Positions 10,703 to 32,308 are shown, counted from the first letter of the stretch. The stretch: DNA of 64,000 nt from Kiritimatiellia bacterium (GCA_012103575.1 WLWN01000001.1:75792-139791), one strand, 5' to 3'. Made by a program: numbers and translations. The notes: generated by a model from the sequence alone, not told the origin.

Positions 10703-10865
10703 CCTGGATCCGTCAGTTAAACGCGGTTTTCTGCACGAACCATTTGGGCCAAAAGGAATTACAAAAAAGCCTCGACGCACCCAGCGGGTGCGCCTGCGTT
10801 TTTTTGCAACCTTTTGCCTCCAAAGCATTCGCACAGAAATCCCACGTTTAACTGACGGATCCAGG
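10703..10865 (+). mobile_element. MITE-1 copy 1 (163 bp, 21-bp perfect TIR CCTGGATCCGTCAGTTAAACG)
   Basis: Near-identical to copies at 15947-16109, 36061-36223 (inverted) and 51184-51338 (left TIR truncated). Confidence 0.75.
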
Positions 10866-12863: not shown

Positions 12864-12867
12864 TAAT

Positions 12868-14566
12868 GTGTCTGCTCAAGGTGTCGACTTTACCACATTG
12901 TTCGATCCTGTTACGTGGAGCTTAACGACGGGTTATTACGCAATACGAGCCAGAAGTGAAGATTCATTTGGGCAATCCGATAATTTCCAGCCAGACATCA
13001 GCGGTGTAGGCGCTGATACCTCTGGTAAGACCACAGCAGAATGGCATAGAGATTTGGGTGTAATTAGAGTAATAGAAATTATTCTCCCTCCGGTAGACTT
13101 GGACATTGATTCTGACAATAACAATAGATTAGGCATTCCGGATAGAAGTACTACAGAGGATGAGGGTGAAGACGTTTTGGGGAATTCCGCTCAACCTGGA
13201 AAATTTATAGAGGTAAGCACAGAAGACGCAGACAATGACAATATACCTGACTTTGCAGATGGATTTAACCTCGATGGAATGGGTGGAAATGATGACGATA
13301 CCTCTGTTGGTGTAGGGTTTATACCTTTAGTCTTTGAATTGGCAGGCGTCACAAATCTAGAAGTTGCCGAAAATAAGGCTTACATATAACGCATCCGATC
13401 CATTGGGGGTTGCTGTGTCGGGGACATCCACGAATCGAACCTATACACCTGGGGCAGGTGGCTTGCGGATATGGACCGAAGATGGTGGGGTCGTTCGGAA
13501 TGGAAATCAGGTACATGTCGGTGGAAATTTTATTTCTTCGAGTGTTTATGATGCGACCAATTTGGGTTTCTCAATGAACAACCTTATTGTTACATCCTAT
13601 GTCGAAGGGATATGGGGAAGCGCATCTGTAGCGGATCAACACATTCTAGTTGAGGTAGATCCTGATGGGTCAGCTGGAGCAGGGTTCGTGCATAGTGATG
13701 CGGTTCGGGTTACTCTGCTTGAGTTAACCTTTTCTAGCGATGAGACAGGGAATCTATATCTACCTGCATTTAACGGCTCGACTAATGTGGCAAGGTTAGA
13801 TGAATTCAGGTTTTTAGTGGGGGAAAACCGCGCGATACTGGGTAAAGTGTCCGGGAGTTTGGATAGGAGTTTTACCTTTGAAGTTGTGGGAGATAGTATT
13901 CCGGCTATTCCGCCCGTGCCCGCTTTGGGTAATTTAGCAAATAGTGGGTTTTCTTTTACACCTAATGCCACGTTAGGGAATCGACCTCTCGGAACAACAG
14001 CAATTCCCGCTGTACGCTATACCGTTAGTATTAAAAACTCACTAGGAACGGTTGTGGTTGACAAGACTATATCCCAAGATCTGATTGACCGAGTACGGCA
14101 AGAATATATAGATCGTTTTATTCATCACGGTACTGGTTTTACAGCAGGGAGTATAGGGTTGGTTTCTCATGCCCCTTCTCGCGATGAGGTTAAGCGTGCG
14201 CCATCTATACAAGTGGGTGGACCTGGACCTATTGGAAACTGTAGGGATTGGCCGAATCCGAATTATACAGAATCGGGAATAGGCATTGTGTGGGATCAAG
14301 GGTCTGTTGATCTTATTAACAATATTCGGTTAAACATGGGTCCTGATACGGTCTGCCTTCATAGCGGGCATAGGAGTCCGTCTCATAATCAGCGAGTAAA
14401 CGGTGCGACTAATAGTGACCACCAATGGGGACGGGCCGCAGACATGTCTTATGAAAATACGGTGGTAGTGGGTACCGTTGCAGCAGCTTTATTTCACTTG
14501 CGTCTCTATCGGGTTGCTCTTGGAGAGACAACGGGTCAGATTCTGCTTGAGCTGAATTCAGCCTAA
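12868..14566 (+). CDS. secreted acidic protein with C-terminal peptidase M15 (VanY/zinc D-Ala-D-Ala carboxypeptidase-like) domain; 5' end abuts IS630, internal frameshift near 13364-13389
   Basis: Two overlapping ORFs (12868-13389, 13364-14566); motif HSGHRSPSHNQRVNGATNSDHQWGRAADM resembles the M15 SGYRSPxxN...SxHxxGxAADi signature; D-rich possible Ca-binding stretch. Confidence 0.45.
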
Positions 14567-14994
14567 CGACTACCCAACCGATGGGATCCACCTCCAACCA
14601 ATCATACGTTTGTTGCGATATCAGGAAACGCCAATTGGCAAGTGGAAGTCGAAGACAGTAATCAAGATGGTCTGCCGGATCAAGTAAACGCGGTAATGGG
14701 CACGATTCCAAATGCTACAGATTTAGTTTGGAATGGGGGAGGGACAAGTAATCCTCCGCTTAGGGTTTTAGATGGAAATAATAATAACCAAATCGATGTT
14801 GGGGAAACGTTAGTGATCATCTATAACGGGACACATACGCTTTTCGAACGATTTTCTGGAGCTAGCCATATCCATGCAGAAACCAATTAAGAAAAAAGGA
14901 AAGACTTTATTGACGGAGTGTTTAATTCATGCGAAGCAGAGTGATGAGTCAAGAAGGCCTTAGACTATGAAAAATAGATCATGGGAGAAAGAGA

Positions 14995-15290
14995 CAGCGC
15001 CCCTCCAGGGCGCAGGATCTGTTCTCATGACCTTTCCTGGGGTTAAAACCCCAGGCTATATACCCTCACTGCGTTGCAGTGAAACAGGATTGAAGAGGTT
15101 GGAATTATGGATGAGATTGAAACTCTAGGTGGCATGTCCACACTGCATTGCAGTGAAGAAAGGTCGGATTTTGTATGGCGACAAATATGATGATTCCAAA
15201 GATGTCCCAACGGGACAAGGTGATACAGCCTGGGGTTTTGACCCCAGGAACGAGGGAACAACCCTTCCATTGCGCCCTGAAGGGGCGCTG
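14995..15290. repeat. MITE-2 copy 1 (hairpin-rich ~296-bp element with palindromic ends GCGCCCCTCCAGGGCGC / GCGCCCTGAAGGGGCGC)
   Basis: Second copy at 15615-15896; internal perfect palindromes CCTGGGGTTAAAACCCCAGG. Confidence 0.6.
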
Positions 15291-15348
15291 TTGAGGAGAG
15301 GAAAATGAGGAAAATAATGTTTAATTTAAATTTTACAGAAGGAGAAAA

Positions 15349-15594
15349 ATGAAAATAAAAGAATCCATAGCTGAAATCCAAGCCGTCGGACGTCGGATAT
15401 CCACAGAGTATGGACCTGGTATAAAAGCCTTGCTTAATCACTGCAAGGAATCCGCAAAGTCCTATAAAGATCAATTATTGCTCCATTCTAAACGACAGAT
15501 CCACAGAGTGGCCGAAACTTTGGCTGAGTACACAGCCGAGAAAGAGGATGAAACAGGGCAGGTTAAGAAGGCATTAGAAAATGAGAAGAAATAA
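15349..15594 (+). CDS. small hypothetical protein (81 aa) between the two MITE-2 copies
   Basis: ATG preceded by GGAGAAAA Shine-Dalgarno-like sequence; charged K/E-rich; no recognisable family. Confidence 0.3.
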   Translation: MKIKESIAEIQAVGRRISTEYGPGIKALLNHCKESAKSYKDQLLLHSKRQIHRVAETLAEYTAEKEDETGQVKKALENEKK

Positions 15595-15614
15595 ATCATG
15601 GGTGAAGAAGGTAC

Positions 15615-15896
15615 GGCACCCCTTCAGGGCGCAAGATCTTTTTTCATTACGTCTCCTGGGGTTGAAACCCCAGGCTATGCGTTGCAGTGAAAGAGGATGG
15701 AAGATGTTGGAATTATAGACGAGGTTGGACAGGTTGGCATGTTCACACATCATTGCAGTGAAGAGAGATCGGATTTTATAGGGTGACGAATATGATGACT
15801 CAAAAAGATGTCCCAATGGGACAAGGTGATACAGCCTGGGGTTTCAACCCCAGGAACCAGAAAACAATCATCCCATTGCGCCCTGAAGGGGCGCTG
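15615..15896. repeat. MITE-2 copy 2
   Basis: Near-identical architecture to 14995-15290 with scattered substitutions. Confidence 0.6.
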
Positions 15897-15946
15897 TCTA
15901 ATGAAAAAGAGTAAGAGCATGAATAAAGAACGTATAAATATAATAG

Positions 15947-16109
15947 CCTGGATCCGTCAGTTAAACGCGGTTTTCTGCACGAACCATTTGGGCCAAAAGG
16001 AATTACAAAAGAGCCTCGACGCACCCAGCAGGTGCGCCTGCGTTTTTTTGCAACCTTTTGCCTCCAAAGCATTCGCACAGAAATCCCACGTTTAACTGAC
16101 GGATCCAGG
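15947..16109 (+). mobile_element. MITE-1 copy 2
   Basis: Perfect TIRs; same internal sequence as copy 1. Confidence 0.75.
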
Positions 16110-16170
16110 AATAGGAAAACGTTCCGCCCCAAATCTTTTTTCTGCTATCTTCTTCGTATTCTGTGGTTTA

Positions 16171-17148
16171 ATGATCTTTCTCTTGTATGCGACAACCTCG
16201 ACAGCTAATCCTCTGGTCACGGTTACATCAAAAGTCGTGGGGACTCAACTGGAAGTTTCTCCCGTGCAAATGGCGGTGCCAAAAGGAATCGCCGGGTCTG
16301 TAAATGTGAACATTGTAGCAGGACTTGGAGGTGAAAATGAAACATCCCTTGCCCTAGCCGATGGCGTTCATATTGAGGCAACCCTACGGGGTCCTTCTTT
16401 TGCGGCCCGACAAACCTTTGGTCGCCCAAATGAACCCCTGTTGTTCCCGCCATTACCGCTAGTCGGCGATTATCAACTCGATGCTATTAAGCTGGTCGAT
16501 TCTGCAACCGGTAAAATCCGCCTCGAAGGTTCCCCCTCAAGCATCCCTATTTTTGTATTCAAAGAAGTGCTGGTTACCCGGGTAACTTCACGGCCGTTAA
16601 CCCTCGACGAGATTCAGGAAAAAGGGATTTTGATCGATGAATCCAATTTTCGGGCGGTGGAATTTGAAGTGGGGTTTGTGATCGACGGAAAAACGGTTCC
16701 GGTCAAGTTACCGGTGATTGCCCCCACGTTTAAAGAAGCCACAGAAATTATTCCTCAAGCAGAAATCGATGAAAAGATGGCGGCAGCCAATGTGATGAAT
16801 CAGCAACTTTCTCAGACAGCGGAGTTACCGCCGGAACTGGAAGCCGCAGGTCTAAACATTGAAATTCAAGGCATCAATTTTCAGTTTGTGGATACAACTT
16901 TAGAATTAGGTCTTGCTCTACAACCTCCTCCGATTCCTGCATTGATGGTGATTCCGGGGAATATTGGTTTTATCAATCAGTTTTTTAGTGTTCAGATTTT
17001 TATGGAAAATGGGGTGCCGGGAGGTTCGGGACTTAACGTGCATAATATGCAGGCCGAACTACTCCTGCCGGTGGGATCGGATTTGGTAGCTGGAACGTAT
17101 GAGGTTTCCGGCGATGATCCATTGCGTTTTGCGCGGACAGGAACGAAT
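16171..17148 (+). CDS. hypothetical protein fragment, 3' end runs into IS30
   Basis: ORF 16171-17187 continues into the IS30 left end at 17149; no recognisable motifs. Confidence 0.35.
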
Positions 17149-18194
17149 GGTAGAGTAACAATACAAGTGCAAAGGTCCGCAGCATAGTTCATTCTTTGGG
17201 TATCTGACCCCCCCCCAAAGGAGAACATAGAATGCCACGAACCTACGAACATTTAAACCGTTATGAACGAGAAGTGATAGCCCAGATGCTAAAAGAAAAA
17301 TATAGCTTATCTCAAATTGGCCGTCGCCTGGGCCGATCCCCCTCGACTATTTGGCGCGAATTTCGCCGTAATCGAGTCCGTGGCCGCTATTACCCAAGAC
17401 CCGCAAATGGCCTGGCTCAAAGCCGATTACAGCTAGCTCGAAAGCCTCAAAAAGTGATGGGAGCTAGCAAAGAACAAGTGGAGACTCTCCTGGCGAATAT
17501 TGGTCTCCAGAACAGATTGAAGGTCGAGGAAAGCTAGAAGGTGACCCTCCCATCAGTCGAATGATGATCTACCGCTACTTGTACAGTCCAAGAGGGGCTG
17601 GCTACCGAAAATACCTGCGTGGCCCCGGAAAGAAAAAACGAGCGACTCGGAAAAGCCATTCACGTATACACAACCAAACGATGATTGACCAACGCCCCGA
17701 AGAGGGTGAAAGTCGCAAGGTGGCAGGCCATTGGGAAGGTGACACTATTCAGGGCCAAACGAGAAAAGAGGCCTGTGTAGTCACTCTAGTAGATCGAGCG
17801 ACTCGATATCTCATCGCCGATCTTTTACCTCGATGCAATGCCGAATCGGTCAACCGTTCCGTACCTCAGTTCGCTGATTCAGGGCTCCCCTTTAAAACGG
17901 TGACTGTAGATAATGGCATGGAGTTTGCCAGCCATGCTAAACTACAGAAAAAAATAGCAACCCCCATTTTCTTTGCTGAAGGGAGAAACCCTTGGCAAAG
18001 AGGGAGCAACGAAAATACGAATGGTTTGCTTCGCCAGTTTTTCCCGAAGAAAACCGACTTTGCTGCCCACAGCTCCGCTCAGTTGAGCTGGGCTGTGGAG
18101 TTACTGAATAATAGGCCGAGAAAATGCTTAGAATATAGAACGCCCAAAGAAATGATGGACAGCTTCGGTTTTGCACTTGTAAGTTGAGTCTGCA
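17149..18194 (+). mobile_element. IS30-family element (type 1), transposase frameshifted
   Basis: Transposase split into ORFs 17232-17537 and 17561-18187 by a 1-nt deletion (GAATATTGG versus GAAGTATTGG in the intact copy). Confidence 0.8.
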
Positions 18195-19154
18195 AGCGTG
18201 GAAAGGAGGTGTAGTTCTTGGCCCATGAACGTTAGCCCATGTATACATTTTTTTAATACCCTCTTCAAGAGACGTACTCTCTTTTAGCCCCAATACCTCT
18301 TTTATTTTTTCATGGTCTGAATACGCATGTACAACTTCATTGCGGCTTTCACAGTAAGTAATTTTGGGGTTTGACAGGCCGAATGTCTGGCCAACAATTT
18401 TTGCCAACTCACTAACCGAATAAGGGTGATCACTCCCTATATTAAATACATCATTATAACACGATTTGAGCTCGATAGATTTTGCCATGATAGGTGCAAG
18501 GTCTCCAATATACGAAAAAGCACGTGTCTGTGCTCCGTCCCCAAAAATCGTGAGCGGTTGATCTTGCATAAATTGGTTCATGAAGATACCGATTACGTTC
18601 CGATACTTATCCCCAATATTTTGGCGCTCTCCGTAAACATTGTGTGGCCGAAAAATAATATAGTTCAGGTCGTACATAGAACGCGCCGCCTTAAGATCTA
18701 GTTCAACCGCATATTTAGAAATTCCATAAGGATCTTCCGGTTGAGGGGTAAGGCTTTCAACCATAGGCAACTGATTCTGTCCATACACGGCTATAGACGA
18801 GGTAAATACAGAACATTTTATCTCATGCTTTATAGATGCATTAAGAAGATTTACGCTGCCAATGAGATTGTTTTCATAATTGAAGCGCCGGATAAAATGA
18901 CTTAACCCCTCTGCGGCATAAGCGGCTAGATGAAAGACATAATCAAAATCATGTGTTTCAAAAAGCTGATTGATGAGGTCAGTATCCAATATACTTCCCT
19001 CGACAAACCGGGCTTCGTTTGAAACGTTATCTCGGAACCCACCTGAAAGATCATCGAGAGCAACAACATCATGATGGCATTTCAGTAATTCATCAACCAC
19101 ATGGGACCCCATGAATCCTGCACCCCCGGTTACTAATGAATATTTTTTAGTCAT
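17937..19154 (-). CDS. NAD-dependent epimerase/dehydratase (GalE/WcaG-like); 3' end fused to IS30 sequence
   Basis: MTKKYSLVTGGAGFMGSHVV Rossmann start at 19154; reading frame continues into IS30 right end (CRLNLQVQ...). Confidence 0.7.
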   Translation of the reverse strand: MTKKYSLVTGGAGFMGSHVVDELLKCHHDVVALDDLSGGFRDNVSNEARFVEGSILDTDLINQLFETHDFDYVFHLAAYAAEGLSHFIRRFNYENNLIGSVNLLNASIKHEIKCSVFTSSIAVYGQNQLPMVESLTPQPEDPYGISKYAVELDLKAARSMYDLNYIIFRPHNVYGERQNIGDKYRNVIGIFMNQFMQDQPLTIFGDGAQTRAFSYIGDLAPIMAKSIELKSCYNDVFNIGSDHPYSVSELAKIVGQTFGLSNPKITYCESRNEVVHAYSDHEKIKEVLGLKESTSLEEGIKKMYTWANVHGPRTTPPFHACRLNLQVQNRSCPSFLWAFYILSIFSAYYSVTPQPSSTERSCGQQSRFSSGKTGEANHSYFRCSLFAKGFSLQQRKWGLLFFSVV

Positions 19155-19247
19155 CATTTCTATTTCATAAGTTTGCATCCAATTGAATATGTCAATATGT
19201 GACGGATGGACCGGCATTGAGCCACAAAAAAATGTATATGGCTAGAA

Positions 19248-20261
19248 TTATTTAAGGCAGGTCAAATCCTCAGTGGTATTTAGGGGGTCGCGTAAAAAGA
19301 ATCCTCTTATAAATCCAATTCCGTACCCGATATGACCCGCCAGGAACGCAAAAGGGGCAACAAAAATTTCCTTGTATGACTGAGATAAACGTATGCTTTC
19401 CACAACAACCGCTAGTAGATATAAGAATACAGGTGCGCAAAGCGCTCTGTATAGAAAGTGGTCATGTATCCATGGGAGGAGCACGAGTAGCCCTGCCGCG
19501 TATAAGGAAAAAAATGCAGGCGCCGCTTGCCATATATAGGAAACATCGCTTTTACTCTTTCTTAACCTTCCCTTATCTAACCCATAATTATAAAACTGTT
19601 TCATAAAGGGTCTGAGTATTTTTCGGCGATGATGAAAAACGACTACGTCAGGGTCATACAAAACTTTCTGTCCTTTTGCCCGGATCTCCAGGCAATACAT
19701 CATGTCCTCACTCGTATTCAAATCTTCTCGAAATACAATGCCTCTTTGACGACGAATGATCATGTTGCATGTTGGCATTTCGTTAACATATTGACGTTGC
19801 TTGGGTACATGGCGAATATAAGCGGGGCCAAAACCGATGGGGCTTTCCATCACGCGCCCTGAAATACGCCGTGAAAAATGATCGTGCGGAGGTGTTAGGT
19901 TTGGACCGGTCACAACGGTCACGTTTTTCTGTAGCAAGGGGAGGCCTTTTCCCAGCCAATCCATCCTTGGGTAGGCGTCAGCATCGATCAAGGCAAATCG
20001 CTCGGCGTCACTTTTTTGTAATACAATATTTCTTTTATAGGCTGGATTACCGGGTCCGGTCGGTTCGATAATAAGTTGTGGAGGCTGTACGAGAAGATCA
20101 AGTCTTTTCCTCCATTCGAGGGTGGGCATATCATCTGGTAATAACCATATTCTTGTTTCGAAACTTGCTGCGGCTAACCTTCCGCATTTGTCAACGCATT
20201 CTAAAAGCCACGAATCTGCTATTTGAAAGGGTATTATGATATCAATTTTCTTATACGTCAT
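19248..20261 (-). CDS. family 2 glycosyltransferase with C-terminal membrane segments
   Basis: 337 aa; GT-A fold-like N-terminus (IIIPF..., DADAYP), hydrophobic C-terminus. Confidence 0.65.
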   Translation of the reverse strand: MTYKKIDIIIPFQIADSWLLECVDKCGRLAAASFETRIWLLPDDMPTLEWRKRLDLLVQPPQLIIEPTGPGNPAYKRNIVLQKSDAERFALIDADAYPRMDWLGKGLPLLQKNVTVVTGPNLTPPHDHFSRRISGRVMESPIGFGPAYIRHVPKQRQYVNEMPTCNMIIRRQRGIVFREDLNTSEDMMYCLEIRAKGQKVLYDPDVVVFHHRRKILRPFMKQFYNYGLDKGRLRKSKSDVSYIWQAAPAFFSLYAAGLLVLLPWIHDHFLYRALCAPVFLYLLAVVVESIRLSQSYKEIFVAPFAFLAGHIGYGIGFIRGFFLRDPLNTTEDLTCLK

Positions 20262-20318
20262 TGTTTCTGTGTGTTTGTATCGTTCCCAATGATCTGTTGT
20301 TGCTCTGTGAAAGCAGGT

Positions 20319-20720
20319 TTACCATACACATTGGTTATACTGAGCGGACATCCAGCGATCTCGTGTTATGAGCGGGAGATTCATGGCTTTAGCTGTGGCA
20401 AGGACGATCTGATCAAAGGGGTCTCTGTGGTCACACAAATACATGCTTTCGGCCATGATTCGTTCTTCGTAGGGTTGGAACCGAAAATTTTTTGAGCCTT
20501 CAATATATTTAATAACTTCTTCAATCTGTGCATCAATGCGTTTAATTTCTATCAATATTGAACTTCGAGAGTTACCATTGTGGGTACGTAAAAGATATTT
20601 CGAGCCTGACAGATAATCCGTCTGATTTTTTGAGATAGTGTGTCGGGTTCTAATAGCCAATAAATGAGTGAATGAGTATCGATGACGAAAGCATGCGAAG
20701 GGGCTGCGTTCATTTCGGAA
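20319..20720 (-). pseudogene. PIN-domain (VapC-like) toxin, frameshifted
   Basis: N-terminus MNAAPSHAFVIDTHSLIYWLLEPD in one frame (from ATG ~20720) and C-terminus DPFDQIVLATAKAMNLPLITRDRWM in another; shift near 20580. Confidence 0.5.
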
Positions 20721-20779
20721 GATGCAGGTGTTTCAACAACTCGGTATCCGCGCTTTCCAAATCCCCTATGATCTTTCCC

Positions 20780-20953
20780 TTAATCTTTTCTTTTCTTTAG
20801 TAGATGGGGGTTCTTTGTCTTGCTGTAGACTTCTTCAGAAACAATAACGGCATTGCCAAATCGTGTCTGTATATGTACGGGAATCCCTTGTAAAGCAACT
20901 CGGAGTTCTTTAAACAGTCTGTTTCTTAATTGAGTAGGTGTCAGATAGTTCAT
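20780..20953 (-). CDS. Phd/YefM-like antitoxin (putative)
   Basis: Internal Met start MNYLTPTQLRNRLFKELRVALQGIPVHIQTRFGNAVIVSEEVY; immediately upstream of the PIN remnant. Confidence 0.45.
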   Translation of the reverse strand: MNYLTPTQLRNRLFKELRVALQGIPVHIQTRFGNAVIVSEEVYSKTKNPHLLKKRKD

Positions 20954-21075
20954 GTTTTCTCCCTTTCCAACTTTTTGAATATGTACATAACAGTATGTAC
21001 GTATTCTTGTCAAGGAGGTGTTTCCGTTAAGTTTTCTGTTCCGTGTTTTTCGTGGGTAAAAATCTGCTGTTGTTG

Positions 21076-21837
21076 TCAGTGGTGAGCGGATCCGTCTGTG
21101 GCGGAAGCATCCAGCGCTTTTCCCATCTCCTTCAATCCTGTTGGAGTTCCCATATCGAGTAGAGGAGGGGGGGTCTTATAGGCTTTGAGTCGTCCTTCTT
21201 GACTTAAGACAGGAAAGATATCTGTTTCTAAAGACATGGTTTTGTTCGGCTCAATAGACGCTAAAACTTTTTTAGCCATCAGGTAAACACCGCCATTAAT
21301 CCATCCCTCCGTGTGATGCGCTTTCTCTTGGAAGGAGGTAACGAGATCTTGGTCGTTAAAGGTCACCGTTCCGTAGCGACCGGCATCTTGGATCTGTGTT
21401 ATAGAAAGTGTCATAAGGGCATCCAAAGACGTACAGTGTTGGTTGCTTAATGCTTGGAAATCTAGATTGAGGAGTAGGCTGTCCCCATTCAGAACAAAAA
21501 AAGGATCCGTTTGAATAGCGTTCTCTAAAAATTTGATGGCTCCAGCTGTCCCCAAAGGGCGTGGCTCTATAGAAAGAGAGATTTTAAGGTCAGGGAAAGG
21601 GTCAGCGTCAAGCCACTCTTGTATAGCCTTTGGCATATAACCCGCTGACAAATGAATATCTGTAATGTTCTGCTTGCTTAGCCATTCGATTTGCCATTGC
21701 AGAAAGGGTTTTCCCGCTATAGAGATTAACGCTTTCGGTCGGTCTGGAGCAACGGAACGGATGCGTGTTCCTTGACCGCCTATGAGTAAAATAGCTTGAG
21801 GAGAGGGCCGATAGAGGTAAGACGCAGAGGAAGTCAT
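21076..21837 (-). CDS. sugar-phosphate nucleotidyltransferase (HddC/ManC-like)
   Basis: LLIGGQGTRIRS G-x-G-T-R motif. Confidence 0.7.
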   Translation of the reverse strand: MTSSASYLYRPSPQAILLIGGQGTRIRSVAPDRPKALISIAGKPFLQWQIEWLSKQNITDIHLSAGYMPKAIQEWLDADPFPDLKISLSIEPRPLGTAGAIKFLENAIQTDPFFVLNGDSLLLNLDFQALSNQHCTSLDALMTLSITQIQDAGRYGTVTFNDQDLVTSFQEKAHHTEGWINGGVYLMAKKVLASIEPNKTMSLETDIFPVLSQEGRLKAYKTPPPLLDMGTPTGLKEMGKALDASATDGSAHH

Positions 21838-21839
21838 GT

Positions 21840-22850
21840 TTATGTTTCGTTCGGGAGCCGTGTTTTAACATGTTCGTATGTTTTTTTTAACCCCTCTTCA
21901 AAAGAGGTGTTAGGGACCCAATCATATAGTAACTGTTTTGCTAGTGTGCAGGTTACGGCTTGACCCCACAATGTCGTCTTAACAGAGAGATCGAATGATA
22001 ATGTAAGGTCTTTATCCGCTATTTTGATAATGTGTTCTGCAATTGTTTTAATGGTGACGCGACCCTCTTGTCCTAAGCTGAAAGGGCCGACGATGGAATG
22101 ATTTTTTTGTGCAGAAATACTGCGGAGGATGGCATCTACTACATCATCTATAAAACAATAAGAGCGTGTTTCTTCGCCCGTACCCCAAAGAGGAATGGCT
22201 TCTCTACGATTAGCCCGTAAAGCCCGATGGCATAAAACAGGGATGACCGAACCTGTCTCTAGTCCGATGTCTTGGTTATAGCCATAAGCCCCAACAATAC
22301 GGGCTATAGATACCCGGAGCCAAGGATGTTCTTGTGCGAATCCTTCCAGCGTTTGTTCCCCTATCAGTTTTCCCCAGCCATAGCTTAATCCCGGGTTAGC
22401 TGGATAGGCTTCATCTTCTGTTAAAGGAGAACTGTCTGGTGTTTGTTGTCGTTCTTCGGGGTAAACATGTGCACTACTTGCATAGAACACTGAGGGGATA
22501 CGGTGTTCTATAATGGCTTTGAAAACGTTTTGATCAATAAGAAGGTTATTATTTAAAATGTCTCCCGGATGGTTTAAATAAACTTTGATGCCACCGACTT
22601 TGGAGGCTAAGTGAAAGACCACCTCTGACCCTTTTAAACAATCGCGGGTTTCCTCAAGATTACGAAGATCCATTTGATGAAAATCAACTTTGTCTATGAA
22701 AGGTGTTATAAACTCAAGAGCGCCGCGTTCTAGATTGTCAAGAATTTTGACGTTTGCTCCTTCCTGTACCAATCGTTTGGCCAGGATCGATCCAATGCAT
22801 CCGGCACCCCCTGTTATGACGACTGAACGATTTTTCCATGTATAATTCAT
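21840..22850 (-). CDS. NAD-dependent epimerase/dehydratase (extended SDR)
   Basis: VVITGGAGCIGS Rossmann motif; YxxxK region. Confidence 0.7.
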   Translation of the reverse strand: MNYTWKNRSVVITGGAGCIGSILAKRLVQEGANVKILDNLERGALEFITPFIDKVDFHQMDLRNLEETRDCLKGSEVVFHLASKVGGIKVYLNHPGDILNNNLLIDQNVFKAIIEHRIPSVFYASSAHVYPEERQQTPDSSPLTEDEAYPANPGLSYGWGKLIGEQTLEGFAQEHPWLRVSIARIVGAYGYNQDIGLETGSVIPVLCHRALRANRREAIPLWGTGEETRSYCFIDDVVDAILRSISAQKNHSIVGPFSLGQEGRVTIKTIAEHIIKIADKDLTLSFDLSVKTTLWGQAVTCTLAKQLLYDWVPNTSFEEGLKKTYEHVKTRLPNET

Positions 22851-22862
22851 AATGCTAGGTAC

Positions 22863-24068
22863 TTATTTTTCAACGGGGAAGAAAGAGTATAATGCATGTG
22901 CCCATTGTTGCGTTATTTTTTTAGGATCCAGTTTTTCTTGTACTGTTTTATACGCCTCTATCCCCATTTGTTTTCTATTTTCGGGATGATCAAGCATACG
23001 TATCAGCTGATTGCAAAATTCATCGCGGTCCGTTGGATCAAATAGCAAGCCGTTTTTCCCGTCTTTAACCCATTCGGAAATGCCCTTTAAACGGGCCGCT
23101 AGAATAGAGGATCCGCATGCTAAACTATGTAACAAATTAGCGGTGACTTGAAAATGATCTGAGAACTTTCCTTCTCTCATAACTAATGACACGTCTCCTG
23201 CATTCAGTAGATCGTTTAAGGCGTTGACGTGGGGTAGCCATCCTAAAAACTGTACATGCTTTTCCATGTCCAACTTTTTTGCCTGAATTTCTAATTTTAG
23301 TCGTAAAGGGCCGTCACCTGCAATAACAAAAAGGATGCTTTTATGCTGATCGAGAAGAGGCTGTACAAAACTGAAAATACGGTCTAGGGCCTTGTTAGGA
23401 TGAAGAATGCCGTGATGAACAATCACGAAATCATGGTCATGGAATCCAAACTGTTCACGGGCTGACTGCTTGTCGATAGGATAGAAAATATGGGATTCAC
23501 ATGCTTCCGAGATAACCGCGATATTGTCCGCCTTTATGCCTTTGGAAACAGCATATTGTTTATATGCTTCTGTATGAGTAATGGTCCCTTGAAGACGTTT
23601 CCACGTAAAAACATCCATTTTTTCAAAGAATTGGCGGATGGGTTTTTCCCACTTTTTGTGGCCCAGATAGACGTCCCAGAGGATGTCGCAACTACTGATG
23701 GCAACAGGGCGACCTGAAAAGAACATAAGAATGAGGGGGAGTATGGGCAGTGATTCTTCGATGTAGATCAAATCAATTTTTTTCGCCCGAGCCCATAGGC
23801 CGATCCATGGAGCGGTGATATACCACAAGATTGTTTTGCTCCATTTATCAAACGCTGAACTTCGTTTCAGGCGTATAGGCATCTCATGGATATATATGTG
23901 CTCATGTTCAGTTAGCCAATGCTTATGAAGTGACTTGAATGAAAAATGATGAACGTCGAGTGTTTCAGAAAGTTTTAGGAGTACATGCGGATAGGTGTTT
24001 GCCATGGCTTCATGATCGGCAAGACCATACCGGAATAAAGAAAGAATTTGTTTGCGTTTTTTGTTCAT
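22863..24068 (-). CDS. glycosyltransferase, GT-B fold (GT4-like)
   Basis: 401 aa; C-terminal half typical of GT1/GT4 (EGFS/ E-x7-E-like region). Confidence 0.65.
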   Translation of the reverse strand: MNKKRKQILSLFRYGLADHEAMANTYPHVLLKLSETLDVHHFSFKSLHKHWLTEHEHIYIHEMPIRLKRSSAFDKWSKTILWYITAPWIGLWARAKKIDLIYIEESLPILPLILMFFSGRPVAISSCDILWDVYLGHKKWEKPIRQFFEKMDVFTWKRLQGTITHTEAYKQYAVSKGIKADNIAVISEACESHIFYPIDKQSAREQFGFHDHDFVIVHHGILHPNKALDRIFSFVQPLLDQHKSILFVIAGDGPLRLKLEIQAKKLDMEKHVQFLGWLPHVNALNDLLNAGDVSLVMREGKFSDHFQVTANLLHSLACGSSILAARLKGISEWVKDGKNGLLFDPTDRDEFCNQLIRMLDHPENRKQMGIEAYKTVQEKLDPKKITQQWAHALYSFFPVEK

Positions 24069-24097
24069 AGAAAACTAGCGATGAGATTGTGAGTGAT

Positions 24098-25123
24098 TTA
24101 GGGGCACGTGCTAGACCAGGTTTGCACGCCTACGTTCGAAAAGCTGAAGGTCATAAAGATGCCACCTAATTCCTCTAATTTTTCTTTGACGTCTCTTTTT
24201 TTGTCCATGGGAACAAAAAGAAGTAAAAATCCGCCACCCCCTGCACCTAGAATCTTTCCTCCGAAAGCGCCTTCCTTACGGGCTGCATTATATAATGCAT
24301 CAATATGTTCATCGGTAGTTTCGGGGTTCATTCTCTTTTTAGCCAATCCTGCTTTGTGTAGAAGGTGTCCGAACTCAAATATTTTTCCACGTAGAAGAAG
24401 GCTTTTTGCCTCATACGCTAAGGCTTTTAATTGTTCTGTACCCTCGCGGCTTGTTCCTGCGTTTTCTTGAAACGCTGCGACTTGTTTGTCGATTAGATTT
24501 GCTGATAACCGTGTCCCACCTGTAAAGCATAGCATACAGTGGCTTTCGAGATCGTTGAGGGTGTCCTGGTGGAGCCGTAAAGGCGTTACTTCTACATGAT
24601 CGGTGTTAAATTCTATTAAATTGAAGCCGCCAAATGTGCTTGCGTATTGATCTTGTTTCCCTCCGCTAATACCCATTTTGATCCGTTCAACGCGATAGGC
24701 TTTTTCGGCCAGTGCATAAAGATCAAGGTGTGCTTCGTTTAGCGTTTGTAAGCCGGCAAGGACGGCTGTGAGCATAGAGGAGGAGCTTCCCAGTCCGCTT
24801 CCTGGTGGGGCTTCTGTTTGAATACAAATGTCAAGCCCTCTATCAATATTTAATTCTTCGATACTGGCTTTGACCAAATCTAAAACACCATCGTATTTGG
24901 GTTTATCCTTAAGGTTAAAGTCAATTTGTTTGTTATAATCTAAAGACCGTACAGAGATTTGGTGGTCATCGTGGGGTGTAATCGAGGCGTAACTATACTT
25001 GTTAATCGTGCTAACCAGTACCGCACCCCCGATATTCTGATACACGGCTTCTATATCCGTACCTCCTCCAGCAAAACTAATGCGCAGTGGAGATTTTGCT
25101 CGGAGATAGGTTACTTCTTTCAC
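24098..25123 (-). CDS. GHMP-family sugar kinase (D-glycero-D-manno-heptose 7-phosphate kinase HddA-like)
   Basis: PPGSGLGSSSS GHMP motif; adjacent to nucleotidyltransferase. Confidence 0.7.
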   Translation of the reverse strand: MKEVTYLRAKSPLRISFAGGGTDIEAVYQNIGGAVLVSTINKYSYASITPHDDHQISVRSLDYNKQIDFNLKDKPKYDGVLDLVKASIEELNIDRGLDICIQTEAPPGSGLGSSSSMLTAVLAGLQTLNEAHLDLYALAEKAYRVERIKMGISGGKQDQYASTFGGFNLIEFNTDHVEVTPLRLHQDTLNDLESHCMLCFTGGTRLSANLIDKQVAAFQENAGTSREGTEQLKALAYEAKSLLLRGKIFEFGHLLHKAGLAKKRMNPETTDEHIDALYNAARKEGAFGGKILGAGGGGFLLLFVPMDKKRDVKEKLEELGGIFMTFSFSNVGVQTWSSTCP

Positions 25124-26073
25124 TTTCGCGCCTCATGTTGGTGTGCTCGGTACCAATCAACCGTTTTTTGAAGCCCCTCTTCAAGGGATGTCTTGGCTTT
25201 CCACCCTAACTCTTCTTTTGCTTTGGTGATGTCAAAACATCGATGAAGCTGTCCATCGGGTCGTGACGTATTCCATTCGATTTGTCCCTTATATGCTGTG
25301 ATACGTGTTAAGATATCTATGACCTCTTTGATGGAAGTTTCTTGTCCAGAACTTAGGTTCACAATGGCATTGGTATTAAAGTATTCAGCGCTTAAAAGAA
25401 GCCCTTCAGCGACGTCCCCAGCATAGACAAAATCGCGCGCAGCTTTTCCTGTTCCCCAGACCTCTATTCGCTCTGTTGCCTGTTTAGTGGCCTCAACAAA
25501 TTTGCGGACTAAGGCGGGAATAACATGAGCATCAAGTAGGTTATAATTATCATAAGGTCCGTAAATATTTCCGGGAATTCCGATGACAGAAACAAAATTA
25601 TGCTGTCTATAATAGGCTTCGGATTGGATCGTTAACAACCTTTTTGCCAGTGAATAGTGTGCGCTTTCCTGCTGGGGAAACCCTGACCAAAGATCAGACT
25701 CCTTTAATGGATTTTCAGCAAACTGAGGATAGCCGCAGCCTGCACCCGCGGCGATAAATTTAGAGGCGCCATGCTCCCATGCATGATGGAGCATAAATGT
25801 TCCCATGAGAAGATTTTGATAGAAGTAGCTAGCCGGTTGCTCTTTGTTCGGCAAAATACCTCCTACGAGTCCAGCTAGATGGATAACAATATCGCACGGA
25901 TGTTCTTTGAAAAGCCTGATAACTTCATCTTCACGGGTCAGGTTATAGTCCTTACTGCGAACACTGAAAATTTCCGCTATATCTTTTTTGCTCTCTAGTG
26001 CCTGAGTCACGTGTGTGCCGAGGAATCCACCGCCGCCTGTAACCAGTATTCTTTTGTTTGTCCAGATCGACAT
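25120..26073 (-). CDS. GDP-L-fucose synthase family 3,5-epimerase/4-reductase (Fcl-like)
   Basis: ILVTGGGGFLG..., HVIPALVRKF...VWGTG...SRPDG blocks matching Fcl. Confidence 0.7.
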   Translation of the reverse strand: MSIWTNKRILVTGGGGFLGTHVTQALESKKDIAEIFSVRSKDYNLTREDEVIRLFKEHPCDIVIHLAGLVGGILPNKEQPASYFYQNLLMGTFMLHHAWEHGASKFIAAGAGCGYPQFAENPLKESDLWSGFPQQESAHYSLAKRLLTIQSEAYYRQHNFVSVIGIPGNIYGPYDNYNLLDAHVIPALVRKFVEATKQATERIEVWGTGKAARDFVYAGDVAEGLLLSAEYFNTNAIVNLSSGQETSIKEVIDILTRITAYKGQIEWNTSRPDGQLHRCFDITKAKEELGWKAKTSLEEGLQKTVDWYRAHQHEARK

Positions 26074-26227
26074 AAATAAAATTCACCTTTCTCTTAAGTT
26101 AGTGCTGCATCCATACCACCGAAAATAGGGTTTGTAAATGTGCGAATGAATCCTCTTGAAAAATCGAAGAAAGAATGTCAAGATCCCAAACAAATCCTAA
26201 TAACCCAAATTTGAATGTAAAAAGATC

Positions 26228-26995
26228 ATGATAGACAGCCCTCCCAACGTACAGACTCATTCTCGAAAAGAAATCTGGTCCATATTCGATCGCATAGCGC
26301 ATCGATATGATCTGTTGAATCAGTTGTTATCGTTTGGTCAAGATCGTGTCTGGCGAAATAAGTTGGCCCTATGTCTACGCGGAAAAAAAGATTTACATCT
26401 TCTTGATTTGGCAACGGGCACAGGCGATCAACTGTTATCGATATGCAAAAAAGGGATTCTTATTCAATCAGGGGTTGGAATGGACATGTCCGAAAAGATG
26501 CTCGAAATCGGGCGTAAAAAAGTGGCTGAACGCAAATGGGAAGGACGCATAGCGCTGCAACGTGGCGATGCGATGGACATCCCTTTAGAAAACAATCGTT
26601 TTGATGCGGTAACGATTTCGTTTGGTATCCGTAACGTAGTGAATGTTGTCCATGCTTTAAAAGAAATGTATCGCGTACTTAAACCCGGCGGACGCGTATT
26701 GGTTTTAGAATGTTCACTCCCACCCAATCGGTTTGTGCGTTCCGTTTATTTATTTTACTTTCGGAATATTTTACCTCGCATGGGGTCATTAATTTCTGGT
26801 GATTCATACGCGTATCGATATCTAAACGAAACCGTTGAAACGTTTCCGTGTGGACAAGATTTTTGTGATATGATGTTGTCAGCAGGACTTGTAGACGCTA
26901 GGGCAACACCTCTCACGTTTGGGATTGCTACTATTTATGAAGGAACGAAACCCGGGTTCGAAGATCAGCCATCAGAAGCGAGCCCTATAGCATAA
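26228..26995 (+). CDS. ubiE: demethylmenaquinone/ubiquinone methyltransferase
   Basis: SAM-binding LDLATGTGD, UbiE/MenG-like blocks. Confidence 0.8.
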   Translation: MIDSPPNVQTHSRKEIWSIFDRIAHRYDLLNQLLSFGQDRVWRNKLALCLRGKKDLHLLDLATGTGDQLLSICKKGILIQSGVGMDMSEKMLEIGRKKVAERKWEGRIALQRGDAMDIPLENNRFDAVTISFGIRNVVNVVHALKEMYRVLKPGGRVLVLECSLPPNRFVRSVYLFYFRNILPRMGSLISGDSYAYRYLNETVETFPCGQDFCDMMLSAGLVDARATPLTFGIATIYEGTKPGFEDQPSEASPIA

Positions 26996-26997
26996 CG

Positions 26998-28380
26998 ATG
27001 AATGGTGCCGTTACAGAATCTCTAGGCGTCTCTCGGATGAATGCTTTTATGATTCAATTAGCCGAAAAAATCAAAGCGTTCCAAAACGTTTCGGATCATC
27101 CTCCGTTTCAAGCCACCAGACTCGTTATCCCTATTCCATCCGTAGACCCTTTAGACTGGCTGAATCAACAGAAAAGCGATGTAAAAAGTTATTGGTCTTC
27201 CCGCGATAAACAGTTTGAAATGGCTGCTGTGGGTATGGCTGATTGCATCACCGCCAAGACCTTTCATGAATTTCCTCACTTTTCTCAACGGCTTAAGGAC
27301 ATCTTGTCTGTTAGCTCAAAAGGCGTTCGGTATTATGGGGGATATCGATTTTCTAATTCTGCGTCGACTGAAATGTGGGAACCGTTTGGATCTTATTATT
27401 TTTATTTGCCTCGCTTTGAACTCATTCACAAACGTGGCAAGAGGTATCTCGCGTGTAATGTTTTTTTAAAAGATTCAACCACCGTCGATCAAGTTCTTGC
27501 CGAATTAGAAGAGATTACCTTTTCTTCAAACAGCTCAGAAAGCGTTCCTCTCATTCCTACGTTAAGGGAAGATGACCCGGGCAAAGAACAATGGCATACA
27601 AATATTTATCGCGCGTTGGCCTCTTTTGATGTCGGTGAAATGGAAAAAATCGTTTTGGCCCGAAAATCAACGTTCTCATTTGACCATCATCTCAATCCCT
27701 TGACCTTATTGCAGAAGTTACAAGCAGGCACACCCCAATGCTTTCATTTTTGTTTTCAACCCCAAAAAGGGACCGCTTTTGTCGGGGCCTCCCCTGAACG
27801 TCTTTACCGACGAACCGGGCAATCCATTGAAAGCGAAGCCGTGGCGGGAACGCGTCCTCGTGGCCAAACAAGGTCCATAGACACTCGACTGGCCCAAGAA
27901 CTATTAGATAGCGATAAAGAGCTGCGTGAACATTGTTTTGTTCGTGATTCCATACGTGACCTCTTAGAGCCCTTATGTGAATCTTTAAATCTAGATGCGG
28001 ATGTGTCTTTGATTCGGCTTGCCAGGGGCCAGCATCTTTTCACAGGGTTCCACGGTAGTTTAAAAGCCCATGTAACGGATCAAGATTTATTACATGAACT
28101 CCATCCCACGCCTGCCGTAGGTGGCTGTCCAACCGAAAAAGCCATACAGAAAATCACAGAATGGGAAAACTTTGATAGGGGTTGGTATGCCGCACCCATC
28201 GGTTGGATCGGACGTGATTCTGCTGAATTTGCTGTGGCGATTCGGTCTGGACTCATAAACGGTGATCAGCTTTCTTTATTTTCCGGAGCTGGCATTGTTC
28301 AGGGATCGACCCCTGAAAGAGAATGGAGCGAAATCGAAAACAAAATCGGCGACTTTATCAAATTATTAACCGGCACATGA
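26998..28380 (+). CDS. menF: isochorismate synthase (menaquinone-specific)
   Basis: Chorismate-binding C-terminal domain (GASPERL..., AGTRPRG); context ubiE-menD. Confidence 0.7.
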   Translation: MNGAVTESLGVSRMNAFMIQLAEKIKAFQNVSDHPPFQATRLVIPIPSVDPLDWLNQQKSDVKSYWSSRDKQFEMAAVGMADCITAKTFHEFPHFSQRLKDILSVSSKGVRYYGGYRFSNSASTEMWEPFGSYYFYLPRFELIHKRGKRYLACNVFLKDSTTVDQVLAELEEITFSSNSSESVPLIPTLREDDPGKEQWHTNIYRALASFDVGEMEKIVLARKSTFSFDHHLNPLTLLQKLQAGTPQCFHFCFQPQKGTAFVGASPERLYRRTGQSIESEAVAGTRPRGQTRSIDTRLAQELLDSDKELREHCFVRDSIRDLLEPLCESLNLDADVSLIRLARGQHLFTGFHGSLKAHVTDQDLLHELHPTPAVGGCPTEKAIQKITEWENFDRGWYAAPIGWIGRDSAEFAVAIRSGLINGDQLSLFSGAGIVQGSTPEREWSEIENKIGDFIKLLTGT

Positions 28381-30116
28381 AAGACCTCAATCTCAACGAT
28401 GTCTGGGCCCATCTTATCATTGAAGAGTTTTATCGGCAAGGGGTCCGATGCGTAAGCCTTTCTTCTGGATCGCGTAGTTCTCCTTTAACGGTTGCTGCTG
28501 CCGAACATCCTGGCATAGAATGTATCGTCCACTACGATGAACGAGGCGCCGCTTTTTTTGCGGTGGGATGGGGCCGAGCGACAGGGATGCCGGCGCTTGT
28601 GATTACAACGTCTGGAACTGCCGTAGCCAATGCCTTTCCAGCTGTCATTGAAGCAGCGAAGGATCATGTGCCTCTTATTTTACTGACGGCAGATAGGCCT
28701 CCTGAACTGAGAGACACAGGGGCTAATCAAACGATTGACCAAGTAAAAATCTTTGGTGAATATGTGCGATGGAATGTTGATCTTCCGTGCCCAACACAGG
28801 ACATCGATCCCGCTATGGTTTTAACCACCGTTGACCAGATTTGGTTTCAAACCCTAAACACTAAAGGGCCTACTCATTTGAACTGTATGTTTCGAGAACC
28901 TTTAACTTCAACAGACAGAGATTTCAGTGATGTCGTTTCGCTAAAAAATATTCAAAAATGGCGTGACGGAGAAAGCCTTTATACTTCATATCCAATGCCC
29001 ACAGTGCGATTGGAGGAGTCGAAACTCGAAGAGGTAGCTTCAGCCTTATCTTCTGTTAAACAAGGTATCATCGTCGTCGGAAAACTTGATCACCCAGAAC
29101 AAAGCAAAGCGGTTTCTACATTGATTGCGGCTATGCAATGGCCTGTGTTTCCGGATAGTACATCGGGTTTGAAAGTAGGAAATCATAGCCCCTATATAAT
29201 CTCTCATTGCGATCAAATCTTGGTATCCCAACCTGCAACCGAATCCACTCGGCCAGAAGCAGTACTGCATGTGGGGGGGGCTATAGTTTCAAAACGCTTG
29301 CTTCATTTCATTAAACAATCTAGGCCTAAGAAATATATTGTTGTCAAAGAACATGCTCAACGACAGGATCCTTTTCATCATGTAACGACGAGTATTCAAA
29401 CAAATCTTGAAGATTTTTGTTGTCGATTCGCGTCCATTGTAAAAATAACCCCTGATCCTTCTTGGCTCTCTCAATGGTTAACGTATTCAGACAAAATAGG
29501 CGAAAAAATCAGGAATCATTTTTCTGGCATGAATGAACTAAATGAACCGCTCATTGCCCGATTAGTATCAGCCGAACTTCCAGAAAATCATGGCCTTGTT
29601 TTGGGCAATAGTATGCCTATATGCGATATGGATATGTACGGCGCTTGTGATGGGTCGTCGATTCGGATCATCGCCAATCGTGGAGCGAGTGGGATTGATG
29701 GACTGATTGCCACCGCAGCGGGTTATGCTCAAGGCACAGGAAGTCCTGTTACGGTTATTATAGGTGATTTAACTTGTTTACACGATTTAAACTCACTGGC
29801 TTTTTTAAAAAAGATAAAAGTGCCTGTAACCCTTATTGTTATAAACAATGATGGGGGTGGTATTTTTTCATTTCTACCTGTCTCGAAAGACAAAAACAAC
29901 TTTGAACCCTACTTTGGAACCCCTCATGGTTTATCTCTTCAAGGAGGAGCAAAGCTATTTCAATTGGATTATAAGCATCCCCAAACAGCAGATGAGTTTG
30001 TGAAAGATTTTGAGGAAGCGACCCAATCCGATCAATCAACTCTTATAGAGGTCTTTACAGATCGACAAAAAAATTATGAGTTGCACGAGACTCTACTGAG
30101 AATAAAAGAAGAGTAA
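28377..30116 (+). CDS. menD: 2-succinyl-5-enolpyruvyl-6-hydroxy-3-cyclohexene-1-carboxylate synthase
   Basis: ThDP enzyme; ATG at 28377 overlaps menF stop (ATGA); MenD-like N-terminus. Confidence 0.8.
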   Translation: MKDLNLNDVWAHLIIEEFYRQGVRCVSLSSGSRSSPLTVAAAEHPGIECIVHYDERGAAFFAVGWGRATGMPALVITTSGTAVANAFPAVIEAAKDHVPLILLTADRPPELRDTGANQTIDQVKIFGEYVRWNVDLPCPTQDIDPAMVLTTVDQIWFQTLNTKGPTHLNCMFREPLTSTDRDFSDVVSLKNIQKWRDGESLYTSYPMPTVRLEESKLEEVASALSSVKQGIIVVGKLDHPEQSKAVSTLIAAMQWPVFPDSTSGLKVGNHSPYIISHCDQILVSQPATESTRPEAVLHVGGAIVSKRLLHFIKQSRPKKYIVVKEHAQRQDPFHHVTTSIQTNLEDFCCRFASIVKITPDPSWLSQWLTYSDKIGEKIRNHFSGMNELNEPLIARLVSAELPENHGLVLGNSMPICDMDMYGACDGSSIRIIANRGASGIDGLIATAAGYAQGTGSPVTVIIGDLTCLHDLNSLAFLKKIKVPVTLIVINNDGGGIFSFLPVSKDKNNFEPYFGTPHGLSLQGGAKLFQLDYKHPQTADEFVKDFEEATQSDQSTLIEVFTDRQKNYELHETLLRIKEE

Positions 30117-30239
30117 AGAATCAGGTTGCATCGTTGCATTGTGCCCATGTACTATCCCCGCACTCACAACGTATTCATAAAGCAGATAAACCTAAGTTTG
30201 TACTTTTCGGGAAAGTCAATATGAGAGCACCTAAAAACT

Positions 30240-32248: not shown

Positions 32249-32308
32249 GTAGCGCGAAGTTGACCTGACTTCAACGCCTGGATCACTGGAATAAGAAATT
32301 TCCAGACG

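Follow-up and report, generated by a model that had tools for sequence, protein, structure and literature searches.

The closest described relatives of the system considered here are the HddA/HddC-type enzymes of GDP-heptose synthesis, among them WcbL, the heptokinase of Burkholderia pseudomallei, and the HddC protein of Yersinia pseudotuberculosis (YpHddC). The enzymes of Campylobacter jejuni that remodel GDP-heptose include C3/C5-epimerases, which are cupins. In that organism, C4 of GDP-heptose is oxidised by a dehydrogenase or a dehydratase, the sugar is epimerised, and the product is then reduced by C4-reductases of the Fcl family. This toolkit consists of the C4-dehydrogenase Cj1427, the 4,6-dehydratase DdahA, the C3/C5-epimerases and the Fcl-family C4-reductases, and the latter both finish the 6-deoxyheptose pathways and act on the 6-hydroxy 4-keto-heptoses produced by the C4-dehydrogenase (PMC10680097). 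Here we describe a minus-strand locus at positions 17937-26073 of a 64,000-nucleotide stretch of DNA from a Kiritimatiellia bacterium (GCA_012103575.1, WLWN01000001.1:75792-139791; hereafter referred to, at its full length, as the window). The locus is most likely an ordinary, uncharacterised operon whose products make a modified GDP-activated heptose and attach it to a cell-surface glycan. That it serves synthesis of a GDP-sugar and transfer of this sugar onto a surface glycan is very probable; that the sugar is a modified GDP-heptose, made by a core of five genes, is the mechanism that we favour with moderate confidence.

The locus resembles the characterised HddA/HddC-type systems in encoding a kinase with all the essential residues of WcbL and a small guanylyltransferase with the glutamate motif of HddC, and in being a glycan locus with glycosyltransferases. 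It differs from them in that the cassette has neither gmhA nor gmhB, the sequence similarity is modest and an Ala-Val pair follows the sugar-binding Asp of the kinase. The likeness to the C. jejuni toolkit would lie in the activation of GDP-heptose at C4, the resetting of stereocentres and the use of an Fcl-family short-chain dehydrogenase/reductase (SDR) for the last reduction. Here, however, cupin epimerases and a 4,6-dehydratase are both missing; the cassette has instead an SDR similar to GDP-mannose 3,5-epimerase (GME), in which Cys145 is replaced by His, and an Fcl-like SDR that retains the epimerase Cys. Epimerisation presumably takes place inside the SDRs themselves.

The five genes of the conserved core are all intact in the open reading frame (ORF) map. 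The operon begins with the Fcl-like extended SDR (SDR3, 25120-26073), which overlaps by 4 nt the start of an HddA-type anomeric sugar kinase of the GHMP family (24098-25123, GTG start). A glycosyltransferase of family GT4 (GT-B; 22863-24068; Glycos_transf_1, E = 1e-22) lies between the kinase and the GME-like extended SDR (SDR2, 21840-22850), a divergent subfamily within the Epimerase family, and the core ends with an HddC/ManC-type sugar-1-phosphate guanylyltransferase (21076-21837). The ORFs listed in an earlier, sequence-only reading of this locus are all present on the minus strand within 17937-26073, as seen in the ORF map and the Pfam and NCBIfam scans, and its family calls hold for seven enzymes, i.e. 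three extended SDRs, the HddA-type kinase, the HddC-type nucleotidyltransferase and two glycosyltransferases, one each of GT4 and GT2. That reading had counted eight genes; the inventory stands, but the number resolves into seven genes for enzymes and two remnants of a toxin-antitoxin pair. The kinase is identical to the protein NKB22895.1 in GenBank, from a metagenome-assembled genome (MAG) labelled 'Kiritimatiellae bacterium', and other proteins of the window are likewise identical to those of that MAG. The same locus is found on short-read contigs of two further NCBI assemblies, WLWG01 and WLWE01, where the contigs end at copies of insertion sequences (IS). A promoter and terminator scan of 17000-26400 returned sites no more numerous than in shuffled sequence.

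The best NCBIfam model for the kinase is HddA (220 bits, E = 6e-65), compared with 95 bits for the Fkp fucokinase model and approximately 70 bits for galactokinase models. Its nearest structures are WcbL (E = 9e-59), Bacteroides thetaiotaomicron 3K85 and C. jejuni 4N3O (range 1e-50 to 1e-59), and its PDB matches to fucokinase, galactokinase and mevalonate kinase structures are much weaker. Residues R14, D23, S113-116, Q157 and D158 of the kinase align with R13, D22, S118-120, Q162 and D163 of WcbL, all of which are kept; mutation of these WcbL residues abolishes activity and capsule production, and the authors of the WcbL paper connected Q162 with making room for the additional carbon that a heptose has. 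The same paper left the residues that bind the 7-phosphate undefined because its substrate soaks failed. Among the matches listed, the columns conserved in at least 85% of 50 gmhA-linked kinases are nearly all unchanged in the clade of the window's kinase, including all the conserved charged residues. A departure occurs at residues 26-27, which are Ala-Val in the Kiritimatiellia/Verrucomicrobiota clade and Pro-Tyr in 92-94% of the gmhA-linked HddA homologues among these matches.

Bacteroides Fkp (L-fucokinase/GDP-fucose pyrophosphorylase) offers another comparison, as it likewise joins a GHMP kinase to a guanylyltransferase and yields a GDP-sugar without a sugar-phosphate mutase. The genes here are separate and not fused, however, the match to the Fkp model covers the GHMP core only, and the PDB match to Fkp (E = 2e-19) falls far short of that to WcbL. 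Fkp-type fucose salvage was rejected as a first choice because of the lower score to the Fkp model than to HddA.

For the nucleotidyltransferase, HddC is the best NCBIfam model (146 bits) and YpHddC is the closest structure in PDB (E = 3e-33). The GxGxR motif is present (GGQGTRIR, residues 20-27), and E91-PRPLGTAGA corresponds to the guanine-binding EXXPLGTGGA motif with its Glu kept. This residue reads the guanine and, therefore, a GDP-sugar is the expected product, an expectation that fits the GDP-sugar families to which SDR2 and SDR3 appear to belong. By HMM and PDB matches, the kinase and the nucleotidyltransferase thus place with HddA and HddC, as the sequence-only reading had proposed, and not with galactokinase or GlmU. 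The scores are all well below the NCBIfam equivalog cutoffs (600 bits for HddA, 300 for HddC, 500 for Fcl and 721 for Fkp), but so are those of the gmhA-linked kinases P0119 and P0049. In canonical gmhA/gmhB cassettes, the kinases score 283 and 265 bits against the cutoff of 600 and the nucleotidyltransferases 158 and 138 bits against that of 300. Because enzymes from the canonical nucleotidyltransferase-kinase-GmhA-GmhB cassette also score below them, the HddA and HddC cutoffs are uninformative here. The GT4 gene has orthologues of 48-49% identity at the same position in loci L004 and L008, and a GT4 gene occupies the same position in the Pirellulales locus L012, described below.

The two core SDRs belong to known families, with changes in their active sites. 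SDR3 aligns end to end with Escherichia coli Fcl (246 bits to the NCBIfam model; PDB matches to Fcl at E = 1e-53) and retains the Tyr-x3-Lys motif and Cys109. Ser107 is replaced by Ala and His179 by Tyr, which leaves it without the full triad (Ser107-Tyr136-Lys140) and epimerisation pair (Cys109/His179) of Fcl/GMER. SDR2 can be aligned over its whole length with GME (best PDB match to the plant enzyme, E = 6e-34) and also keeps Tyr-x3-Lys, with Cys145 replaced by His and Lys217 by Thr in place of the GME acid-base pair. Both proteins therefore share with E. coli Fcl (GMER) and the plant and bacterial GMEs the extended-SDR fold, the Tyr-x3-Lys motif and membership in GDP-sugar families but differ from them in these active-site changes, and neither is accompanied by Gmd. 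The two replacements in SDR2 are conserved in seven orthologues, and the signatures SS(A/T)H(V/I)YP and TGS are found in all orthologues. The AGAGCGYP signature of SDR3 is kept in its orthologues, including the one in the gmhA-linked L012, and is imperfect in L017 and L011, whereas the position of His179 alternates between His and Tyr. Since the substitutions are mostly conserved across orthologues, the gmhA-linked Pirellulales cassette included, they mark uncharacterised subfamilies and not decay. In cassettes of this kind, the annotations 'GDP-L-fucose synthase' and 'UDP-glucose 4-epimerase' are probably either erroneous or uninformative.

Genomic context in other organisms was taken from at least 80 loci obtained by scanning genome contigs with the kinase; among the matches listed, 51 species representatives were flanked by 3 kb or more in each direction. 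These 51 loci include gmhA in 38 cases, gmhB in 30 and a nucleotidyltransferase gene in 39. Identity to the window's kinase is highest, at 70-73%, for kinases of Kiritimatiellia, of Verrucomicrobiota and of a metagenome contig without taxonomic assignment. Their cassettes have the order Fcl-like SDR, kinase (with the 4-nt overlap), GT4 or methyltransferase and GME-like SDR, with or without a methyltransferase and a nucleotidyltransferase, so that the core order and the overlap of the first two genes are conserved in the Kiritimatiellia and Verrucomicrobiota relatives. Among the kinases of 48-53% identity, that of Neomoorella glycerini lies in a nucleotidyltransferase-kinase-GmhA-GmhB locus, and one metagenome locus reads SDR, kinase, SDR, SDR, a fusion of nucleotidyltransferase and GmhA, and GmhB. 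Locus L012, from a Pirellulales MAG (JADZFK010000152.1, 623-9714), encodes, in this order, an SDR, the kinase, a nucleotidyltransferase, GmhB, GmhA, an Fcl-like SDR, a GT4 glycosyltransferase, a GME-like SDR and a Wza-type exporter. Its Fcl-like protein is 57% identical to SDR3 and its GME-like protein is 49% identical to SDR2. In the neighbour-joining tree of the matches listed, the kinases linked to an SDR3 orthologue form one clade with the window's kinase. Within this clade, gmhA is found in the cassettes L011, L012 and L017, the first two of which also have gmhB.

The combination of an Fcl-like SDR with a kinase of the HddA clade and a GME-like SDR was also seen in Planctomycetota, Gemmatimonadales and Acidobacteriaceae; in Gemmatimonadales it adjoins a gene of the GT9 heptosyltransferase family, a MurJ-like flippase gene and a priming transferase gene. 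Locus L011, on an unassigned metagenome contig, has the Fcl-like SDR and the kinase with no recognisable GME-like orthologue.

Because the catalytic residues, the clade and the cassette context point together in this direction, we favour heptose 7-phosphate as the kinase substrate; GmhA and GmhB would then be provided by genes elsewhere in the genome. Synthesis of ADP-heptose has been reported for Verrucomicrobiota such as Akkermansia, which makes housekeeping copies of gmhA and gmhB in bacteria of the PVC group plausible. In the pathway that we propose, the kinase, assigned by its family and catalytic residues, would phosphorylate heptose 7-phosphate at O1, a GmhB encoded elsewhere would take off the 7-phosphate, and the guanylyltransferase, to judge from its guanine-binding Glu motif, would form the GDP-sugar. 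From the chemistry of their families, SDR2 and SDR3 would then change the stereochemistry of the sugar by way of a 4-keto intermediate: C4 would be oxidised, C3 and/or C5 epimerised, and C4 finally reduced in a stereospecific manner. The oxygen at C6 would be kept in these SDR steps. Finally, the GT4 glycosyltransferase would move the product onto a surface glycan.

More tentatively, the pair of an Fcl-like SDR (AGAGCGYP) and a GME-like SDR (SSAHVYP), always found next to an HddA-clade kinase, might represent an uncharacterised, SDR-only route of GDP-heptose remodelling that dispenses with cupin epimerases, occurs in at least six lineages and leads to a heptose stereoisomer to which no pathway has been assigned. 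The pair is found in Kiritimatiellia, Verrucomicrobiota, Pirellulales, Gemmatimonadales, Acidobacteriaceae and, in part, in Spirochaetia; D-glycero-L-galacto- or L-gulo-heptose would be examples of such a product. If this is true, the enzymology of GDP-heptose tailoring extends beyond Campylobacter, Yersinia and Burkholderia, with two divergent SDRs, widespread in environmental and host-associated phyla, doing what cupin epimerases do there together with a dehydrogenase or a dehydratase. It would also open a way into the surface glycans of Kiritimatiellia, about which almost nothing is known.

Several observations weigh against a heptose pathway in this locus. Searches of the 64-kb window with tblastn and two GmhA queries found no gmhA and there was no GmhB match, and both genes are likewise missing from the cassettes (±10 kb) of the nearest three relatives and from those of L010 and L013. 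The replacement of Pro-Tyr by Ala-Val directly after the sugar-binding Asp could have altered the substrate of the kinase. For the nucleotidyltransferase, the Rv mannose-1-phosphate guanylyltransferase model (133 bits) comes close behind HddC. The catalytic residues of both core SDRs depart from the canonical ones, so the chemistry assigned to them above is an extrapolation. The kinase tree carries no support values, and the locus itself includes no gene for a flippase, a polymerase, an export system or a priming transferase.

The alternative that best survives is salvage of a hexose. In such a route, the kinase would act at the anomeric position of a free hexose or 6-deoxyhexose (such as D-mannose, L-fucose or L-galactose), the nucleotidyltransferase would turn the product straight into a GDP-hexose, and the SDRs would interconvert GDP-hexoses for the GT4 glycosyltransferase, e.g. 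GDP-mannose to GDP-L-galactose or GDP-L-gulose. GmhA and GmhB would not be needed, in line with their absence from the window and the five related cassettes. Mannose binds in the sugar pocket of WcbL, the Ala-Val change in the window's kinase adjoins the sugar-binding Asp, and the near equality of the two nucleotidyltransferase scores and the closest structure of SDR2, GDP-mannose 3,5-epimerase, would suit this route as well. However, the kinase scores far higher with HddA than with Fkp or galactokinase and keeps Q157, the counterpart of the WcbL residue associated with the extra carbon of heptose. It also nests with gmhA/gmhB-linked members whose cassettes bear orthologous SDRs, and SDR2 lacks the Cys145/Lys217 pair of GME. 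We therefore consider hexose salvage unlikely and retain heptose 7-phosphate as the preferred starting point.

The genes downstream of the core, including the toxin-antitoxin remnant described below, appear to be a lineage-specific extension. The GT2-like glycosyltransferase (19248-20261, minus strand; Glycos_transf_2, 24 bits; MftF-like, 70 bits) is a full-length ORF that contains a DAD motif and has hydrophobic stretches in its C-terminal region. SDR1, a GalE-like enzyme of the Epimerase family (E = 3e-51), has its gene at 18195-19154 on the minus strand within an ORF that spans 17937-19217. Its best match in PDB is GalE (UDP-glucose 4-epimerase) of Thermotoga maritima (E = 1e-54), and homologues of 64-71% identity, mostly of 328-345 aa, occur across bacteria and archaea, which makes it a member of a generic and very widely conserved family. 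No counterparts of GT2 and SDR1 were found in the cassettes of the relatives. The earlier idea that the three SDRs act in one pathway is thus not upheld, as SDR1 and GT2 lie outside the conserved cassette and only SDR2 and SDR3 are part of the core. SDR1 and the membrane-associated GT2 probably serve to make and attach a second sugar, derived from a UDP-hexose.

SDR1 is truncated at its 3' end by an IS30-family element on the plus strand, whose limits (approximately 17150-18194) were set by alignment with two other, near-identical copies of approximately 1045 bp in the window, at 32309-33370 and 40160-41205. These copies have imperfect terminal inverted repeats of approximately 27 bp. The copy at 32309-33370 is intact and encodes a 323-aa transposase with the HTH_38 and rve domains characteristic of the IS30 family; the copy next to SDR1 has a 1-bp deletion that splits its transposase into pieces of 101 and 208 aa, and the one at 40160-41205 has a 1-bp insertion. 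A further IS30 fragment lies at 8360-8659. Domain content, terminal repeats and copy number are therefore those of the family, whereas the copy at the locus is frameshifted and sits at a deletion junction. The ORF of SDR1 continues for 258 nt inside the element, where F339-H340 are followed by 85 IS-encoded residues. An alignment shows that the conserved tail of the family, xNIE(I/V)..xLPxxW, is missing and that some 16 C-terminal codons have been replaced by the IS; no second occurrence of this tail motif was found in the window, and SDR1, as judged from its sequence, is probably impaired. On the other side of the element, a plus-strand ORF at 16171-17187 (338 aa, no Pfam match) has its last 12 codons inside the left end of the IS. 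Because the genes on both sides terminate within it, this IS30 copy is a junction of a deletion or rearrangement and not a simple insertion. The read-through of the first epimerase into IS30, as previously described, is thus real, but it reflects replacement of the last ~16 codons and not mere abutment. The locus had also been described as flanked by IS30. This is correct for the SDR1 end; on the opposite side lie ubiE, menF and menD, so that an IS is present on one side only.

Between GT2 and the nucleotidyltransferase lies the toxin-antitoxin remnant, both parts of which are on the minus strand. The PIN-domain (VapC-like) toxin gene at 20319-20713 is frameshifted once, near 20560. Its two pieces overlap in different frames, with 20552-20713 covering positions 2-43 of the profile and 20319-20660 covering positions 43-112, and repair of the single frameshift gives one match of 54 bits to positions 2-112 of 120. 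As the PIN domain is restored only by this splice, the toxin gene is a pseudogene. Directly upstream is an antitoxin-like ORF of 57 aa (20780-20953), possibly truncated at its C-terminus, which has a sub-threshold match to Phd/YefM (E = 0.09, positions 1-54 of 74). The order of a small antitoxin-like ORF followed by a PIN toxin is that of VapBC modules, but the PIN gene here is frameshifted, so an intact PIN protein with a cognate antitoxin is missing. Of the pair noted earlier at this place, the PIN part is confirmed, and the antitoxin is a candidate on the basis of the sub-threshold match and its position.

This damage could be taken to mean that the whole locus is a decaying, non-functional remnant amid an expansion of IS. 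SDR1 has lost its tail, the PIN gene is frameshifted, the genes on both flanks of IS30 are truncated, at least 10 IS-derived segments are present in the window and no genes for export or polymerisation are adjacent. By contrast, the five core genes and GT2 are full-length with intact catalytic motifs, and the core proteins are 48-73% identical to their orthologues with no stop codons or frameshifts. We regard general decay as distinctly improbable and a functional heptose operon with peripheral damage as the preferred description.

Horizontal acquisition, suggested by the sequence-only reading, is not supported, as neither composition nor synteny points to a recent import. The GC content of the locus is 0.431, compared with 0.451 for the window; GC at third codon positions (GC3) ranges from 0.36 to 0.44, compared with 0.33-0.40 in ten housekeeping genes; and codon usage correlates with that of the housekeeping genes at r = 0.87, where the housekeeping set, split in half, gives 0.92 against itself. 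Composition and codon usage thus match the neighbouring genes, syntenic cassettes are found in Kiritimatiellia and Verrucomicrobiota, and IS elements occur throughout the window, so adjacency to one of them is non-specific. In a more specific form of this idea, the locus would be a recently acquired island mobilised by IS30 between the direct copies at 17150 and 32309. These two copies in the same orientation do bracket 18195-32308, and the toxin-antitoxin remnant lies inside the locus, but the bracketed segment also holds ubiE, menF, menD and sucCD, the composition is close to that of housekeeping genes, and the nearest cassettes, with kinases of 70-73% identity, are syntenic and belong to the same class and phylum. 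Such an island is very unlikely; the abundance of mobile elements in this genome as a whole accounts for the IS and the toxin-antitoxin remnant.

The remaining suggestion concerns the product. A GDP-heptose or a GDP-6-deoxyheptose/fucose derivative had been proposed, and whereas the heptose origin is favoured by the context of the relatives, the 6-deoxy part is not retained. The Thr/Ser-x-Glu motif of 4,6-dehydratases is found in none of the three SDRs, in which this site reads SSIAV, SSAHV and GAGCG, and the Gmd model (TIGR01472) matches two of them, at E = 1e-5 and 4e-3, and is not listed among the matches of the third. A 4,6-dehydratase role for SDR1, SDR2 and SDR3 was rejected on these grounds, i.e. 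the missing (S/T)xE motif and Gmd E-values of 1e-5 or worse. With no dehydratase motif and negligible Gmd scores, a 6-deoxy product, be it 6-deoxyheptose or fucose, is unsupported. Although an Fcl-like SDR is present and Fcl-family reductases end the 6-deoxyheptose pathways of C. jejuni, a GDP-6-deoxyheptose or GDP-fucose-type product is extremely improbable given that the locus has no 4,6-dehydratase, that the orthologous cassettes have no gene of the Gmd/DmhA type and that the C. jejuni reductases also take 6-hydroxy 4-keto-heptoses.

Elsewhere in the window, mobile and repeated elements are numerous. An inverted pair at 42642-43867 and 49958-51183 consists of arms of 1226 nt, 99% identical, each encoding a 354-aa IS30-like transposase (HTH_38 and rve); it brackets approximately 6.1 kb in the manner of a composite transposon or an invertible segment. 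Multiple pieces of an IS630/DDE_3-type element, some direct and others inverted, are found together with part of a DDE_Tnp_1_4 transposase at 1900-4242, 12253-12870, 46017-46872 and 9292-9819. This load suggests that the genome is in a phase of IS expansion, possibly in connection with a host-restricted lifestyle. A direct repeat at 14989-15291 and 15608-15897 (spacing of approximately 606 nt, 83-90% identity) is rich in short GC hairpins (GGGGTTnAAACCCC, GGGCGC) and lies, in a region that has no convincing ORFs, between a Peptidase_M15-containing protein and the ORF at 16171-17187; Tandem Repeats Finder returned nothing for 14500-16300, and this two-copy repeat was seen by another repeat search only. 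At 47616-48760, three tandem units of 384 nt, 75-88% identical, fall within the minus-strand ORFs 47451-48092, which has no Pfam match, and 48481-49125; the unit may correspond to a repeated protein module of 128 aa, possibly interrupted. Finally, a dispersed repeat of approximately 165 nt is present in four copies that are 95-98% identical (10700-10865, 15944-16109, 51173-51338 and, inverted, 36061-36223), and could be an element resembling a miniature inverted-repeat transposable element (MITE) or the end of a larger element.

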